Notes under the pieces: model-generated
Told to the model about the DNA's origin: nothing
Databases searched by the model: none
The model's input: the letters and a program-made list of their open reading frames with translations, nothing else
In this document: positions 2,455 through 11,039 of the stretch, piece by piece
Layout of the letters: each line of letters opens with the position of its first letter
Position numbering within the stretch: the stretch's first letter is position 1
DNA from: Nitrospirota bacterium
GTDB taxonomy: Bacteria > Nitrospirota > UBA9217
NCBI GenBank assembly: GCA_963790205.1
Contig: CAWBNQ010000005.1
Span: 1-64,000, forward strand
Direction: 5' to 3'
Length of the DNA: 64,000 nucleotides
Position numbers and translations under genes: made by a program

Positions 2455-3140
2455 ATGCGTTACGCAGAGACAGGTTATAATTTGGAGATTGATCTAACCC
2501 GGGGAAACATTGAGCGGGTGGAAACCGATCCCAGGGACAGCGAACTGTATCTGGGGGGGCTCGGTACGAATGCTAAAATATTATGGGACAGGGTGCCCCC
2601 GGAAACCCATCCCTTTTCTCCTGAGAATCTCCTGATATTCGGCACCGGTCTTTTATGCGGCACCCCGGCCATCGGCTGTAACCGGACCATTGTTACGACT
2701 GTTTCACCCCAAACGGAGTTGATGGCCTATTCCATGATGGGGGGATTTTGGGCCCCGGAATTGAAATATGCCGGGTATGACAAAGTGATCCTGCGCGGCA
2801 AGTCCTCCAAACTGGTCTATTTGTGGATCAACAATGACAAAGTGGAAATACGGGATGCCTCTCATTTGCAGGGTAAGGGAGCGGTGGAGACACCAGGAGC
2901 TCATCCGGCAGGAATTAAAGGAACCCAAGGCCCAGGTGGCGGCTATCGGCCTCGCCGGTGAAAACCGGGTCTATTTTGCCTCCATCGAGCGGGGCGGTCC
3001 AGTGCCAGCCGGCAGGGAATCGGCGCTGTTATGGGAGACAAAGGGGTCAAGGCCATCGCCGTCCGCGGAACCAAGGATATCAATGTGGCCCAGCCGGCTG
3101 AATTTATGGAACTGTGCAACGAAGTGATGAAATATATACG
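2455..3140 (+). CDS. bamB: Tungsten aldehyde:ferredoxin oxidoreductase family, class II benzoyl-CoA reductase BamB-like; frameshifted and 3'-truncated
   Basis: N-terminus MRYAETGYNLEIDLTRGNIERVETDPRD...YLGGLGTNAKILWDRVPPE and SMMGGFWAPELKYAGYDK match my recollection of Geobacter BamB; similarity ends at LCNEVMKYI. Confidence 0.75.
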
Positions 3141-3142
3141 AA

Positions 3143-4003
3143 TGGCTCCAGTAGAAACTTAACTTGTTCGTCCGTATAACCGTCAACTGTGTTAATAAAC
3201 CCATTTATAATGTCTCTAGTTTTATCCGAAAAGTATTTATTTAGTCTAGAGAAAACTGATACAATCTTGTTTATATATTCAATTACCCTAGGTTCATAAA
3301 TATCCGATATCTTAGCAATGTTCGTTTTCTTTGTGCTTATGTTCGTTACGCAGTATGGACAATTATCAGATAAGTCTAGATACACCCTTCCATCAATAAT
3401 CCATTTTATCCATTTTATGTTATTCTCCGACTGGATGTACTCTTTATAGCCTTCGACTTCCTTCGGAACATTGCGTACTTTGTTCCCGCCCTTAAAGGCC
3501 TTTGATATATTGCTTGATCCGTGAATCCCACTTTTTACCGGTTTCCCAAAACTGCTGCTCAACTCATTAAAGTCGTTGATGAGTTCATCGATATCTTTAT
3601 CATGAGCAAACATCTCTTGGATTGTTTTTGTTAGTTCATTGATTTCTGCCATACCTTTCTCGTACTCCTCATCCCGGATGAAGATATCGAAACTACCTTG
3701 AACGAGTTCGTCCGGAAGAAAGATGTATTTGTTGGTATATTCCTCATCAAAGACTTTCACCAACTTTATGGAATCGATTCCAGTTACTGATGGATTATTA
3801 TCTTCAGAATCGATGTGCTTGAAGGGCTTCAGCTTTAGCAATTCCTTGCTGCCGTTCTTCTGATCATTTATTGATGCTATAATTGCCTTTGAAATTGTGC
3901 TCTTACCGGTTCCGTTTATGGCATACTTGATATTCAGCCTGTTTTCTTTCAGGGTTATAGTTCCATTGTCGATGTTGTTGCAGTTATTTACCAATATGTC
4001 CAT
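3143..4003 (-). CDS. Rad50/RloC-like ABC ATPase, N-terminal part only
   Basis: Walker A-like AINGTGKST, helical region and a CPYC zinc-hook-like motif; AT-rich; cut off at the junction near 3140. Confidence 0.6.
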
Positions 4004-4149
4004 GATCATCCTCTTTCGTAAGTGCAGATACAGAAATTCATATTTAATCTAATTTGCTAAAGGTTCTCTGTCTCATGCACGAATATATGCCTGATTAATG
4101 CTGCTGTCAACACCAGGTAGGGTATTTTGCTGTGATCGTTAGACGTTCC

Positions 4150-6264: not shown

Positions 6265-6646
6265 ATGGACAAGCAGCATGTAGAAGGGTGGGGCGTGATT
6301 CACATGTACACGCGTGAGCAGGCTATTGCAGACGGTCAGCTGGTCGATGTGAGCGACACGCCCGAGGCGAAAGAGGCGGGTTTCCGTGTTCCGGTCTGTC
6401 TTACTGTGGGCGTGCATGCGCTCGTGCAGGTGCCGGAGCTTCTTTCCGGCTGGCAGGACTACAGCGGGCGGTTATGGGACACGTTGTTCCTGGCTGCTGC
6501 GGCTTTCAAGCGGGCAGGGGAGAAGCACCTTGTCCCGTTCGAGGTGATCTACCAGACCGATCCGCGCCGGTCCGCCACGGTCACGCTCTGGCTCTGCTTC
6601 TCGGAGTATCGAGGGCTTCACGATCCTGCTGCCGGAAGAATATTGA
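6265..6646 (+). CDS. DUF6573-like plasmid/ICE protein, frameshift near 6610
   Basis: YTREQAIADGQLVDV N-terminal motif; removing one base restores the C-terminus EGFTILLPEEY*. Confidence 0.65.
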
Positions 6647-6660
6647 GCGTGCGGGTTGTG

Positions 6661-6689
6661 GATAGCCCCGGAGGCCATCCGGGGCTATC
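6661..6689 (+). terminator. Hairpin closing the small-gene operon
   Basis: Perfect 12-bp stem GATAGCCCCGGA/TCCGGGGCTATC; no strong U-tract. Confidence 0.5.
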
Positions 6690-6838
6690 TGAATGATGTC
6701 GGGAAAAATCTATACATATGTCAAATAAATAAAACTAATAGTAAAAATATTTAACATAATAGGTTAATAAATAAGTATTAAAAAACAATTACTTAATAAA
6801 GTTAAGGTAGAAAAATATCTGTATCTTGTTATAAATTC

Positions 6839-6867
6839 TTGCTTTTATACCAGATATGGTATATATT
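6839..6867 (+). promoter_or_regulatory. Promoter of the peptide-E2/E1-JAB operon with an internal operator-like palindrome
   Basis: TTGCTT-17 nt-TATATT after an AT-rich tract; TATACCA-gata-TGGTATA at 6846-6863. Confidence 0.55.
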
Positions 6868-6951
6868 CTGACCGTTAGCACTCAGGCTGCGTAAGTGCTA
6901 GACAAGGTCGATGATCCACAGTAATAATTCCAAACGAAGGAGACCAACAGC

Positions 6952-7095
6952 ATGAGTCAAGAAAAAAAGACGGATGACAAAGAACATCCAGTCCATCCGG
7001 AACACCCGGAGCATCCAGAGCATCCGCACCATCCACCGGTGCCGCCCGGACCACCGTCACCACCAAAGCCGCCACACCACAGGCAAGTAGGATAG
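6952..7095 (+). CDS. 47-aa His/Pro-rich peptide ending in Gly; candidate conjugated modifier
   Basis: GAAGGAG RBS (6936-6942) 9 nt before the ATG; MSQEKKTDDKEHPVHPEHPEHPEHPHHPPVPPGPPSPPKPPHHRQVG*; the TAG is part of the next gene's RBS (TAGGAG). Confidence 0.75.
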   Translation: MSQEKKTDDKEHPVHPEHPEHPEHPHHPPVPPGPPSPPKPPHHRQVG

Positions 7096-7106
7096 GAGAA
7101 ACTCTT

Positions 7107-8915
7107 ATGATTAAGAGATGGTGGCAACGCCATCCCGGGCGACTCGAGTTTGAAATTGAGGCTCTCGCCAAACTAGGCGCCCCTTTCAATTTGGATAAAG
7201 ACCTCTTTGAAAGGGGCGTAGTTATTCTCAAAGGATACTTTCCTCTGGGGACAGAGAATATCTATCTCGAAATCGAATACCCTGAATACTATCCGTATTT
7301 TCGCTTTCAAGCTTTTGCTCCTTATTTAAATCTCCGCTATCATCAGCAGCCGTTCCAAAAGAATCTTTGCCTTCTTCAGCAGTCAACTAGGGCATGGGAT
7401 TACCGTGATACGGCAGAATCGGTTCTGTCTTCGCAACTCCCTAAAATATTGACTGCTAATAATCTGATGAGTAGGCAAGACGTCCTGGACCATGAGCTTC
7501 GCACTGGCCTGGATCTGGAAACTCGTGAACCAGAGCCCGTCGAGCGGTTTATGTCTTTTGAGCCAGGTGTGTATATAATTATTGATAGTAACTGCAGGCC
7601 TACTGGAACAAATGGCGCTCTTATCATAGGATTCAGGCCAGCTGGTAAATACGATGTATTGTCGGGTGCGGTCCTCGAAGTTACTGATCAGAATGGCCGT
7701 CTCCTTCATGCGGCTTCCCCTCAAATAGCAGGAATGTTTCCGATTCGGATTAAAGGCAGATGGCAGCGAGCCGATGCTCCAATCATAAACAACGACCCGC
7801 GACAATATCTCGAGCAACTTGCAAAATTCAACACTGCCGTTTCCGCGATAATTCCTCAGTCTGCAAGAAACATAAAGACCGATGCGCCCAAGGACCGTGA
7901 TATCAAAATTGACATAGTTGCATCCATATACGAAGATGAAACTTCACATCGCCACAAGGATGGCACCTTGTCTTGGGTATTTATCGGTCGATGGATAGTT
8001 GCTTACAAAGGAAACGTAACTAAGAACGGGAAAAAGCGAACCGATATTCACCCTTTTTTCATTAAAGGGGAAAGAGCAGGAAAGGATGATATGACCAGTC
8101 GAATTCCGGAATTGAGAGGTCTTTCTGAAAAAAAGATCGCATTATTTGGCCTCGGTTGCCTTGGTTCTCAGTGCGCAGTTGAATTTTCAAAGGCGGGCAT
8201 TGGAGAACTGCGAATTCTCGATTACGACACAGTGTCAGCTGGTAACACTGTACGTTGGAGCATCGGACTGTCCGCTGTGGGTAAATTGAAAATTGTCGCT
8301 ATGATGGAGTACATAAAGTTAAACTATCCTTATACACAGATAATCGGTTTCAACTCTAGAATTGGCGAAACGTATCGCCCTGGCCAAGATCCTAAGCACA
8401 TCTCCCAGAATGACATCCTAGAGCAAATGCTTGATGGTGTTAATGTCATCGTCGACGCCACTGCGGAAGAAGGTGTCCAAAATTTTCTATCGGACATAGC
8501 CAGGGAGAAGAATATCCCTTATATCTTTATATCAACAACCCACGGTACAAGGGGCGGAATGGTTGCGCGTTTCAGACCAGACAAATCTAAGGGCTGTTGC
8601 CATTGCCTACGTTACTACCTAAATGACGAAAGTATTCCAGTTGCTAATGATGATTTAACCGCAGCCGGTGAAGTTGTTCCGGCTGGATGCGGCGAACCAA
8701 CATTTACCGGAAATAATTTCGATGCTCTCCAGATATCACTTGCAGGTGTTCGTACGACCATTTCTACGTTGATGGAGGGAATTCCTGGCGGATACCCCAC
8801 GGTGCCCTGGGATGTTGAAATAATCAACTTGAGGGACGCAGCGGGAAACCTGATACCTCTACAAAGTATAACACGAGTGATCGAAAAACATCCTTCATGC
8901 GAAAATCACAATTGA
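7107..8915 (+). CDS. E2-E1 (ThiF) fusion, Cap2-like ubiquitin-transferase-type enzyme
   Basis: N-terminal E2-like YPEYYP...HQQPFQKNLCLL (Cys88); C-terminal ThiF GLGCLGS, LDYDTV...NTVR, DATA, CCHC, PAGCGEPTF and HPSC; 602 aa. Confidence 0.85.
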   Translation: MIKRWWQRHPGRLEFEIEALAKLGAPFNLDKDLFERGVVILKGYFPLGTENIYLEIEYPEYYPYFRFQAFAPYLNLRYHQQPFQKNLCLLQQSTRAWDYRDTAESVLSSQLPKILTANNLMSRQDVLDHELRTGLDLETREPEPVERFMSFEPGVYIIIDSNCRPTGTNGALIIGFRPAGKYDVLSGAVLEVTDQNGRLLHAASPQIAGMFPIRIKGRWQRADAPIINNDPRQYLEQLAKFNTAVSAIIPQSARNIKTDAPKDRDIKIDIVASIYEDETSHRHKDGTLSWVFIGRWIVAYKGNVTKNGKKRTDIHPFFIKGERAGKDDMTSRIPELRGLSEKKIALFGLGCLGSQCAVEFSKAGIGELRILDYDTVSAGNTVRWSIGLSAVGKLKIVAMMEYIKLNYPYTQIIGFNSRIGETYRPGQDPKHISQNDILEQMLDGVNVIVDATAEEGVQNFLSDIAREKNIPYIFISTTHGTRGGMVARFRPDKSKGCCHCLRYYLNDESIPVANDDLTAAGEVVPAGCGEPTFTGNNFDALQISLAGVRTTISTLMEGIPGGYPTVPWDVEIINLRDAAGNLIPLQSITRVIEKHPSCENHN

Positions 8916-9403
8916 TACGCAAAGCATGGGTTCGGCGGGAGGCTGCAGAAAAGATGCTGTCTGAAGCCAGTCTTCGATACCCGCTTGAAACTGGCGGCAT
9001 CTTGATTGGATATTTTATGGAATCTAATGTCGTGATTGTTGATGCGATCGGACCCGGCAAATCAGCATCTCACGCGCTGGGGACATTTACACCGGATTAT
9101 TCTTGGCAGGACAAAGAAGTCGCACAGCTTTACAAGAAGTCCGGTCGCCGTCATACATATTTAGGAGACTGGCATACGCACCCTGATGGCAGTGGTTCTC
9201 TCAGCATGAAGGACATTTCCACCCTGGAGAACATTGCCACCTGCAAGACGGCCCGAGTGTCTAGTCCCGTTATGGCGATACTTTCCGGGACTAACGAATG
9301 GGAAATAACGATATGGAACTACTATGCAACAAACACAGAGAAGATCCTTGTCGCAGAAATTCATGAAATCCATATTTATGGCAATGATCAGGTTCGTTTG
9401 TGA
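8897..9403 (+). CDS. JAB/MPN+ metalloprotease, Cap3-like
   Basis: ETGGILIG and YLGDWHTHPDGSGSLSMKD form an intact JAMM motif; overlaps the end of the E2-E1 gene. Confidence 0.9.
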   Translation: MRKSQLIRKAWVRREAAEKMLSEASLRYPLETGGILIGYFMESNVVIVDAIGPGKSASHALGTFTPDYSWQDKEVAQLYKKSGRRHTYLGDWHTHPDGSGSLSMKDISTLENIATCKTARVSSPVMAILSGTNEWEITIWNYYATNTEKILVAEIHEIHIYGNDQVRL

Positions 9404-9418
9404 CAACGCACGAGAAGC

Positions 9419-9447: not shown

Positions 9448-9678
9448 ATGGCTTACTTATTGTGGAGGGTGTATTTGGACGTAAAAATTCTGATCAGAAA
9501 TGAAAAGGGTGATCCGCTCGCTGCTACATGCAGGGTTTGCGGTAAATTCACCCTGGACACGCGAGACTTTCTCTGCGCATCCTGCACATTTTGGCAGTTC
9601 ATGCGCTCTTTTTTTGCCCGTAGTGTAAGCGAAAGCGTACAAAACGATAAGGAGGACGACAATGTTTCAAAAAGCTGA
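9448..9678 (+). CDS. Small putative zinc-binding protein
   Basis: CRVC...CASC; overlaps the start of the sak4-like gene; start codon uncertain. Confidence 0.4.
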   Translation: MAYLLWRVYLDVKILIRNEKGDPLAATCRVCGKFTLDTRDFLCASCTFWQFMRSFFARSVSESVQNDKEDDNVSKS

Positions 9679-10558
9679 ACGGAAGAAAGCTCGCCTGCGG
9701 CTGGCGCTCTGCGGACCGGCAGGCAGCGGCAAGACTTACAGCGCGCTTCTGATCGCCCAAGGCCTCGGCGGAAGGATCGCGCTGATCGACACGGAACATG
9801 AAAGCGGATCGCTTTACGCCGACCTCTGTGAGTTCGACACCGCCTCACTCACCCCGCCGTACACCCCCGAGAAGTACCGGAACGCCATCGCCGCTGCCGA
9901 GGCAGCAGGCTACTCGATCCTGATCATCGACAGCTTTTCCCATGCATGGGCTGGGGAGGGCGGCCTCCTGGACATGCACGACAAGGCCGCTGCCGCCATG
10001 CGGAGCGGGAACAGCTTCACGGCATGGCGAGAGATCACGCCGCAGCACAACGCCCTGGTCGAGGCTGTTCTCGGGGCGCGGCTCCACGTTATCGCAACGC
10101 TCAGGACAAAGACGGCCTACGACCTCGTAGACGACGGCAACGGCAAGAAGAAGCCTGTCAAGATTGGGCTTGCTCCGGTCCAGCGCGAAGGCGTGGACTA
10201 TGAGTTCACCTGTGTATTCGACATGAGCATCGACAGTCACGTTGCCACGGCGAGCAAAGACCGCACGCGCCTGTTCGACGGCAAGCACTTCACTCCGGGG
10301 ATCGAGACCGGTCAGGCGCTCATGAACTGGTTGGAGACTGGCGTAGACGGGGACGCGAAGGCGGCGGCTGCGCGGGACGCGCTCGCGGCCCGGATCAATG
10401 CCATCCAAAACCTGTTTGAATTCCGCAACTGGTGGAAGAAGCACCAGGCGGAGATCGACGCCCTGCCGCTCATAGACCGGACTATCATCATCGACCTTAA
10501 GGAGCGGAGGAAATCCGAACTGGAGAAAGGAGAAGTCAAAGATGGCGCACTTGTATGA
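9662..10558 (+). CDS. Sak4-like phage recombinase (AAA_24/RecA-fold ATPase)
   Basis: KARLRLALCGPAGSGKTYSAL, IDTE and IIDSFSHAWAGEGG are typical of Sak4; strong RBS. Confidence 0.8.
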   Translation: MFQKAERKKARLRLALCGPAGSGKTYSALLIAQGLGGRIALIDTEHESGSLYADLCEFDTASLTPPYTPEKYRNAIAAAEAAGYSILIIDSFSHAWAGEGGLLDMHDKAAAAMRSGNSFTAWREITPQHNALVEAVLGARLHVIATLRTKTAYDLVDDGNGKKKPVKIGLAPVQREGVDYEFTCVFDMSIDSHVATASKDRTRLFDGKHFTPGIETGQALMNWLETGVDGDAKAAAARDALAARINAIQNLFEFRNWWKKHQAEIDALPLIDRTIIIDLKERRKSELEKGEVKDGALV

Positions 10559-11039
10559 ACTAAGCACCGAGCTTGCCACGATCAATGACGAGATCATCAG
10601 CGCGGACGGGGAGCTGACCCCGGACCTGGAGGCGCGGCTCGACTCCGTAGCCCTCGACTTCCGCGCGAAGTCCCAGGGCATTGCAAAGTGGACGCTCGAC
10701 ATCGCGGGCGTCGAATCTATGATCGAGACAGAGATAGCTCGGCTCCAGCGTAAGAAGAAGATTGCCGAGAATCTCCGGACGCGGCTCTTGGCATACGTCA
10801 AGGCCTGCATGGAACAGGCGGACGTGCAGAAGATAGAGTCCCCGACCATCACGCTCCGCATCCAAAAGAACCCGTCGAGCGTGGAGATCCTCGCGGAGGA
10901 CCAGCTCCCCGCAAAATTCATTCGCATCAAACAGATCACAGAACTCGACAAGACTGGAATGCTCGCAGCCCTCAAGAACGGCGAGGAAGTGTCAGGCGCA
11001 CGGCTTGTCACGGAGCGGACCCATCTTCGGATCAGATAG
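10542..11039 (+). CDS. Siphovirus Gp157 family protein
   Basis: LYELS..., coiled coil, IQKNPSSVEI, DKTGMLAALKNGEEVSGARLV...LRIR. Confidence 0.85.
   Translation: MAHLYELSTELATINDEIISADGELTPDLEARLDSVALDFRAKSQGIAKWTLDIAGVESMIETEIARLQRKKKIAENLRTRLLAYVKACMEQADVQKIESPTITLRIQKNPSSVEILAEDQLPAKFIRIKQITELDKTGMLAALKNGEEVSGARLVTERTHLRIR

Follow-up and report, generated by a model that had tools for sequence, protein, structure and literature searches.

The window analyzed here is a stretch of 64,000 nucleotides (nt) from the genome of a Nitrospirota bacterium (GenBank assembly GCA_963790205.1, contig CAWBNQ010000005.1, positions 1 to 64,000, forward strand). Near its left end lies a cassette of three open reading frames (ORFs) encoding a proline-rich peptide of 47 amino acids (aa), a protein in which ubiquitin-conjugating (E2) and ubiquitin-activating (E1) domains are fused, and a JAB-family protease. 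The last two resemble Cap2 and Cap3 of type II CBASS (anti-phage signaling based on cyclic oligonucleotides), and a first-pass annotation, made from the sequence alone, had proposed a new conjugation system at this locus. The features are as follows.

6686..9407, forward strand: whole inserted cassette (promoter region and three genes), delimited by empty sites in relatives and by its G+C contrast.
6839..6867, forward strand: candidate promoter (-35 TTGCTT, 17 nt, -10 TATATT), read by eye and absent from the output of a consensus scan.
6875..6901, forward strand: sequence like CIRCE (controlling inverted repeat of chaperone expression), the putative operator site of the heat-shock repressor HrcA; 16/18 matches, with its end 50 nt upstream of the peptide's start codon ATG.
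6952..7095, forward strand: Pro/His-rich peptide of 47 aa ending PGPPSPPKPPHHRQVG; a predicted conjugatable tag, from tail conservation and codon pattern.
7107..8915, forward strand: E2-linker-E1 fusion of 602 aa with Cap2 architecture, from motif residues, Pfam ThiF and fold match.
8897..9403, forward strand: JAB/JAMM metallopeptidase of 168 aa, Cap3-like (Pfam Prok-JAB, E 2e-12); predicted to trim the pre-peptide and to remove the tag.

The peptide has HRQVG as its C-terminus. Its gene is preceded by the ribosome-binding site GAAGGAG, and its TAG stop codon overlaps the AGGAG of the next ribosome-binding site, which confirms the compact arrangement first described. As also noticed at the outset, the cassette holds these three genes only and no effector gene is adjacent.

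A proline-rich tail precedes the E2-E1 gene

A total of 113 loci were gathered: the window, 9 plasmid loci, 22 genome loci, the best 80 of 114 metagenome matches, and genome G002, the second carrier in the bacterial family. Sixteen loci without the E2 N-terminus were excluded, leaving 97 assessable. The tail was scored where an ORF no more than 330 nt before E2-E1 had a Pro-rich C-terminus of the form [R/G]x[V/A]G. It was found immediately before E2-E1 in 96 of the 97 loci, L082 being the exception, against 18 of 1,984 long ORFs of the window's own genome, so that the upstream Gly-ending, Pro-rich ORF which the first-pass annotation had suggested looking for in homologs is indeed there. The rule requires the last residues, whose frequencies are therefore partly set by construction; an unfiltered look in all frames likewise showed the tail, at all 7 and then at all 21 assessable loci. 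The consensus over 77 distinct tails is PGPxxPPxPPxxRxVG, with Pro at positions -14, -11, -10, -8 and -7 in 68 to 74 of them. When the final 16 codons are compared over 83 distinct tails, entropy is 0.76, 0.68 and 1.88 bits at codon positions 1, 2 and 3, a pattern that points to selection at the protein level: it is the protein, not the DNA, that is conserved. A degenerate DNA pattern built from the tail matched at 4 places; an E2-E1 gene lay beside none of them, and they were judged to be due to chance.

The tail ends a free peptide in 89 loci across eight phyla, the named records belonging to Actinomycetota, Patescibacteria, Acidobacteriota, Pseudomonadota, Thermodesulfobacteriota, Bacteroidota, Planctomycetota and Gemmatimonadota. 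Complete free peptides, of which there are 85, measure 31-83 aa (median 48). Pro makes up 37% of their residues, Gly 13% and His 8%; Leu, Ile, Phe and Tyr are all but missing, and Lys is present in 78 of the peptides. Thus, the initial description of a His/Pro-rich peptide holds for proline, whereas histidine is not a conserved trait; because several peptides have no His at all, His-dependent metal binding was rejected as the core function. The window's peptide contains 15 Pro among its 47 residues, its hydrophobic residues being 3 Val and 1 Met only, and the AlphaFold2 single-sequence model shows neither helix nor strand (predicted template modeling score 0.23). This agrees with the original view that the occupant of the substrate slot would be unable to fold as a beta-grasp domain. 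The peptide has no match in Pfam, NCBIfam, PADLOC or PHROG, and a search of the ESM Atlas, which was uninformative, gave no usable match. Twelve of the 96 tails carry 2-4 residues beyond the glycine and would therefore fit precursors processed by JAB. At one locus (L066), the peptide ends in RPAG and is preceded by a small ORF that by eye looks like a GIY-YIG-type protein.

The E2-E1 and JAB enzymes look active

In the 602-aa protein, Pfam ThiF matches residues 337-505. The E2 domain contains H79, C88 and W97; the E1 domain contains the GxGxxG motif (348-353), R383, K395, D450, the Zn ligands C497, C500 and C598, and a cysteine at the catalytic position, C528. Residues H79, C88, W97, G350, G353, R383, K395, D450, C497, C500 and C528 are present in all 68 intact proteins and C598 in 67 of them, so that the motifs first read as intact, including the two named cysteines C88 and C528, are invariant or nearly so. 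The E2 domain also keeps HQ[N/H], W97 and P63, and its profile matches UBE2L3 (E ~1e-6). The AlphaFold2 model of the fusion (mean predicted local distance difference test score 92.5) has Cap2 (7TO3) as its top Foldseek match (E 2.5e-23, template modeling score 0.59); a VIA comparison with the same structure gave Z 22.4 over 501 residues with a root-mean-square deviation of 4.8. Atg7, MccB and PaaA are further matches of the E1 fold. The JAB protein possesses E31, H93, H95, S103 and D106, the complete JAMM motif claimed for it. A JAB ORF follows E1 in 92 of the 98 loci with enough sequence, and 88 of these 92 have the full HxH...SxxD. Judging from conserved residues and from the model, the enzymes look active.

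PADLOC yielded partial matches only, to CBASS E1-E2 and JAB components, and all NCBIfam matches lie far below cut-off (NF058523, 56 versus 320 bits; Cap3 equivalog, 45 versus 200 bits). At 17 loci, E2-linker and E1 are split into two overlapping or adjacent ORFs at profile position ~280-292, which is probably a natural two-gene form (L019, L025, L027, L028, L030, L033, L047, L051, L055, L061, L067, L071, L079, L087, L093, L110 and L113).

The same tail ends larger proteins, putative Cap2-type substrates

Seven of the 96 loci have the tail at the end of a larger protein, which is a cyclase or a TIR protein in five cases and a small-domain fusion in two. Locus L016 is a complete type II CBASS, with a LexA-like regulator, a patatin effector, a CD-NTase (the cGAS/DncV-like nucleotidyltransferase, or cyclase) ending PPRPTPGPYTPPMPPRRREVG, E2-E1 and JAB. 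In L013, L017, L103 and L104 the tail is carried by a ThsB TIR protein, encoded behind a small hydrophobic protein without Pfam match. These Thoeris-like operons (for example L013:5346-5987 and L017:1185-1802) continue with E2-E1 and JAB, and in L103 a LexA-like gene lies upstream. The fusions are a DUF3892 domain followed by the tail (L015:5555-6004) and an unassigned domain of ~85 aa followed by the tail (L085:4624-4968); the latter domain looked like DUF3606, and this assignment was dropped since Pfam gave no match. L015 and L085 occupy separate positions in the tree, which suggests that the tail was grafted onto small domains independently.

A cyclase occupies the substrate slot in only 1 of 97 loci. 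This speaks against the first-pass annotation's own caveat that homologs might normally carry a CD-NTase which had been deleted here. Five more distant CBASS cyclases have unrelated C-terminal tails; the motif is therefore specific to this E2-E1 family. The window's own genome (98% complete) contains no SMODS and no ThsB_TIR match, and the motif occurs on no other ORF in it. Fourteen of 19 peptide-type genomes, mostly incomplete metagenome-assembled genomes, are without a SMODS match, and none of the 7 SMODS and 3 weak TIR proteins found in the other peptide-type genomes ends in the tail.

In type II CBASS, Cap2 adenylates and conjugates the cyclase C-terminus and Cap3 cleaves after it, as described in 10.1101/2022.03.31.486616 and PMC11153139. 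Since the same motif ends a CD-NTase and TIR proteins served by the same enzyme family, we infer by analogy that the free peptide is the substrate tail without its enzyme, and we consider it very probable that the peptide is the conjugated substrate.

Distribution and phylogeny

E2-E1 is present in 2 of 64 genomes of the bacterial family and in 2 of 401 sampled from the phylum (at class level the genome search comprised the same 64 genomes). G002 has only window positions 6944-9237 in common with the window (69% identity), in a different setting. Judged by sequence clusters, the enzyme family is large: its profile scores E<=1e-30 in 1,238 clusters at 50% identity. No relative was found in viral contigs by protein or profile scan. 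The peptide gene is annotated in 1 of the 9 plasmid records, a set whose gene table is incomplete, and it is because the tag gene is rarely annotated that the family would have been overlooked.

The TIR- and CD-NTase-linked enzymes form one clade in both quick trees (SH-like approximate likelihood ratio test support 99). In the 67-row tree, built without six near-duplicate rows, without one split outgroup and without any broken or split gene, this clade is nested among peptide-only rows. In the 24-row tree the root shifted, and monophyly of the peptide-only forms scored higher and was not rejected (approximately unbiased test, p 0.756). Because of the unstable root and this result, no claim is made that the peptide came first.

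The cassette is mobile cargo

To the left the cassette is flanked by a DUF6573 gene (6265-6696) with a terminator-like hairpin, to the right by the AAA/gp157 recombination module of a mobile element (9662-11039: AAA_24, with a weak Sak4-like match, and a Sipho_Gp157/Gam-like module). The G+C content of the cassette is 44.9%, versus 63% and 58% in the flanks. Five further genomes of the family have the downstream AAA gene, and the three of these loci that extend to the DUF6573 side upstream are all without the cassette. In G014 (L144), the counterparts of window positions 6685 and 9408 lie only ~15 nt apart; in G057 and G035 the cassette is absent and short unrelated stretches are found at the site. 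The cassette, 2.7 kb in all, is thus mobile cargo, as the first-pass annotation had it. No tRNA was found in the window and no repeats were found bounding the cassette. The place between the DUF6573 gene and the AAA_24 module is a spot of variable cargo in related genomes. About 3 kb upstream of the cassette lies an ATPase gene (3104-4009, reverse strand) matching PADLOC PDC-S06 (E 4e-99, 288 of 693 profile positions), which looks truncated.

A CIRCE-like operator and other regulators

The claim that the cassette has its own promoter stands insofar as a plausible candidate can be read by eye at 6839-6867. A consensus scan of promoters did not bear it out, giving 4 sites versus 5.4 expected by chance, one of them TAGACA-18-AATAAT at 6899-6928. 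A perfect palindrome, ATACCA-N4-TGGTAT (6847-6862), lies inside the spacer of the candidate promoter and is possibly a second operator. The CIRCE-like site at 6875-6901, scored against the CIRCE consensus, is the sole match in the window at up to 3 mismatches, where 0.01 would be expected by chance, and none of 1,083 control windows reaches 4 mismatches or fewer. The genome contains hrcA (G000:C1:26241-26894) and 3 perfect CIRCE sites. As a CIRCE-like site lies close to the candidate promoter and the genome encodes HrcA, the cassette would belong to the HrcA/CIRCE regulon, and HrcA binding is predicted. A perfect CIRCE precedes the peptide at a similar position in L061. CIRCE as a general feature of the family was rejected, the site being found in 2 of 92 loci. 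Because HrcA activity depends on GroE, overload of the chaperone, whether from heat or from the making of phage proteins, could induce the operon, which is speculation.

The window's CIRCE-like site stands where other loci have a regulator gene. Among peptide-type loci for which 1,200 nt or more of upstream sequence is available, 42 of 76 (35 of 66 after dereplication) have a regulator within 2 kb: HTH/IrrE in 30, Xre in 5, WYL in 4, LexA in 2 and CIRCE in 1. A DUF2188 gene lies directly before the peptide, in the same direction, at 12 of the 76 loci (L020, L029, L048, L057, L065, L073, L077 and L083, for example); DUF2188 is a possible accessory or target. Clustering of neighbors returned JAB, HTH/IrrE, DUF2188, LexA/S24, WYL and Xre as recurrent families and no recurrent effector or target. 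CapH/CapP, DUF2188 and DUF3892 have been tied to defense operons (10.1101/2022.04.27.489752), and Bub operons show the same regulator types, CapH/CapP and CapW (PMC11601596). PADLOC matches of the defense type were obtained for 13 of 116 chosen neighbor proteins, at 10 of 47 loci.

Relation to known conjugation systems

The cassette shares with Cap2/Cap3 of type II CBASS (Enterobacter cloacae Cap2-CdnD02, 7TO3) the E2-linker-E1 fold, both cysteines, the downstream JAB and an upstream gene ending in glycine, and L016, one member of the same enzyme family, is a type II CBASS in its own right. It differs in having the 47-aa peptide in the slot and no CD-NTase, and in that its three genes include no effector activated by cyclic nucleotides. 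The E2-E1 fusion is 15% identical to Cap2; it keeps an HxN-like motif, the Trp and the Pro motif in E2, whereas E. cloacae Cap2 is described as devoid of these canonical E2 features (HPN motif, Trp and Pro motif; 10.1101/2022.03.31.486616). The system likely works like Cap2/Cap3. TIR proteins with a Gly-ending tail beside Cap2/Cap3 were described in a 2025 preprint (10.64898/2025.12.03.692087, Fig. 6F/S10A), and L013, L017, L103 and L104, which have the same motif and enzyme family, fit that description of Thoeris with Cap2/Cap3. Unlike these, the window and 88 other loci have no TIR protein or effector; in the available part of the preprint the free peptide goes unmentioned and the word "proline" does not occur.

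The Bil (BilABCD) and Bub (6E) systems are likewise conjugation operons without effector and with pre-processing by JAB, and Bil tags a phage tail protein (10.1101/2023.09.26.559546; PMC11601596; PMC11601603). Their modifiers have 1-3 beta-grasp domains, whereas the peptide here is foldless in its model, and only beta-grasp ubiquitin-like proteins are covered in the available part of PMC11601603. In addition, Bil has a separate E2 and an E1 with paired inactive and active adenylation domains (IAD-AAD), where E2 and E1 are fused here; Bub uses Tyr/Ser oxyesters and DUF6527, whereas here the cysteines are invariant and no DUF6527-type family is recurrent. 6A-MBL (NCBIfam NF058523; class 6a, PMC1779556) is alike in fusing an E2 with conserved His and Cys to E1 and in having JAB, and none of classes 6a-6e of Iyer et al. 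2006, as presented in the accessible portion of PMC1779556, includes such a peptide. In 6A-MBL the JAB domain is fused and a metallo-beta-lactamase (MBL) hydrolase is present; here JAB is a separate ORF and the cassette has no MBL gene.

With Pup, to which the peptide was compared in the first-pass annotation, it has in common that both are small, intrinsically disordered tags. Pup is handled by the glutamine-synthetase-like chemistry of PafA and Dop, has a C-terminal Glu (GGE/GGQ) and feeds the proteasome. The peptide here ends in RQVG, its partner is of the ThiF/E2 type, and neither a sequence nor an enzyme relationship to Pup was seen. The comparison thus stands for a disordered peptide served by E1/E2 enzymes and fails as to kinship: because the same motif ends CD-NTase and TIR proteins, the peptide is related to the CBASS conjugation tail, not to Pup.

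By the criterion of modifier or effector, then, the system lies outside type II CBASS, Thoeris, Bil, Bub, 6A-MBL and Pup. A literature search from which most subscription journals were absent, and beside which supplementary operon tables could list such loci, turned up no publication about the free peptide. A conserved E1/E2/JAB system, predicted to conjugate a foldless tag, is apparently undescribed.

Proposed mechanism and alternative explanations

It seems fairly probable that the cassette directs ubiquitin-like tagging by an unfolded Pro-rich peptide, induced by stress and aimed at phage, where chemistry, targets, regulation and defense role are all projected from sequence and from analogy. 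The E1 domain would adenylate the C-terminal G47 of the peptide with ATP; the peptide would then form a thioester on C528, be passed to C88 of E2 and be ligated to an amine, most likely on lysines of target proteins. PGPxxPPxPPxxRxVG would serve as recognition signal for E1 and JAB alike, and JAB would trim the 2-4 extra residues after the glycine and strip tags in unstressed cells. In the absence of an effector gene, the output would be the tag as such: rigid, charged and 30-80 residues long, it could keep the protein to which it is attached, probably one of phage, from assembling or functioning, as the folded ubiquitin-like modifier does in Bil. Stress would gate expression, in many relatives by way of regulators of the CapH/CapP, WYL or LexA type and here likely by way of HrcA. 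The broader proposition is of a widespread E1/E2 class that uses a bare polyproline peptide as its ubiquitin, by way of a portable 16-residue motif which would act alone and be grafted as well onto cyclases, TIR enzymes and small domains, and which in the window would serve HrcA-triggered tagging of phage proteins; the evidence tilts only slightly towards this whole.

Several observations weigh against this interpretation. Cap2 normally binds the folded body of the cyclase as well (10.1101/2022.03.31.486616), and a bare tail must therefore be recognized differently. The E2-E1 gene of the closest relative, in G002 (L141), is frameshifted in its E1 part, and frame breaks occur at several other loci, perhaps from decay or sequencing error. 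As to regulation and defense, CIRCE is confined to 2 of 92 loci, 34 of 76 loci have no recognized regulator, and 37 of 47 lack a PADLOC defense-type neighbor, in a neighbor count made without control. No target is identifiable from sequence.

The same chemistry might instead serve host quality control, the tag marking damaged or aggregated host proteins for Pup-like degradation or for sequestration after heat or DNA damage. The CIRCE-like operator, the perfect CIRCE at L061, the hrcA gene, the DNA-damage-type regulators at many loci and three plasmid copies among metal-resistance genes would all accord with such a role. We hold it to be unlikely, since the cassette is rare, patchy and mobile, unlike a housekeeping function, since no protease, proteasome or chaperone family recurs among its neighbors, and since CIRCE is so seldom found. 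A departure in the chemistry itself, in which the acceptor is a lipid (as with Atg8 and phosphatidylethanolamine), a small molecule or a nucleic-acid amine, or in which the adenylated peptide is the product (as with microcin C), is suggested by the E1 matches to Atg7, MccB and PaaA. A short peptide beside a ThiF enzyme is a layout reminiscent of ribosomally synthesized and post-translationally modified peptides (RiPPs), which would fit the same idea. It is nevertheless quite unlikely: the invariant E2 Cys with HQN and Trp, together with JAB, implies reversible transfer to an amine and not a RiPP product, no exporter, protease or immunity gene recurs, and the presence of the tail on a CD-NTase points by analogy to protein acceptors.

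Two further explanations would deny the peptide its part as the cargo. It could be a decoy or modulator that engages either E2-E1 or a phage deconjugase directed against CBASS, with a cyclase or TIR protein encoded elsewhere in the genome as the real cargo, an idea to which the motif common to cyclase and TIR tails lends itself. The chance of this appears very small: the nearly complete genome of the window offers no SMODS or ThsB_TIR protein and no second ORF with the motif, and such proteins in other peptide-type genomes, mostly incomplete assemblies, have no tail. The ORF could also be the remnant of a decayed cyclase, or a polyproline ribosome-stalling leader tuning translation of E2-E1. 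Its translational coupling to E2-E1, its wealth of PP/PPG motifs and the fact that a single origin of peptide-only forms by loss of the enzyme domain was not rejected (p 0.756, see above) are compatible with this. We regard it as highly improbable, given that the peptide persists in 89 loci from eight phyla, whose enzymes have diverged to ~30-50% identity, and that its variation is of the synonymous-only pattern. Moreover, a stalling leader would have no need of the strict RxVG end, the gap to E2-E1 varies (up to 176 nt), and the enzymes are intact, with no other substrate found.

The known E1/E2 modifiers compared here are beta-grasp proteins or folded signaling enzymes with a tail. If tagging by the free peptide is real, a foldless tag of 30-80 residues would establish the tail by itself as a complete modifier, and would provide a minimal setting in which to see how Cap2-type enzymes choose targets and what conjugation alone does. 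The 16-residue motif, one enzyme and one protease would then make a compact tool for reversible protein ligation.

Other features of related loci

At L141 (G002:C5:40000-56000) a divergent HTH and IrrE pair is found in place of CIRCE, and a 153-aa hydrophobic protein and a 329-aa protein resembling an MBL hydrolase by eye are encoded downstream. The plasmid copies L002, L004 and L006 lie among copper/cadmium resistance genes, probably in shared cargo regions. In L003, L004, L117, L102 and L105, divergent genes for Xre-type antitoxins are found directly upstream of the peptide, accompanied in the three plasmid loci by a RES toxin.

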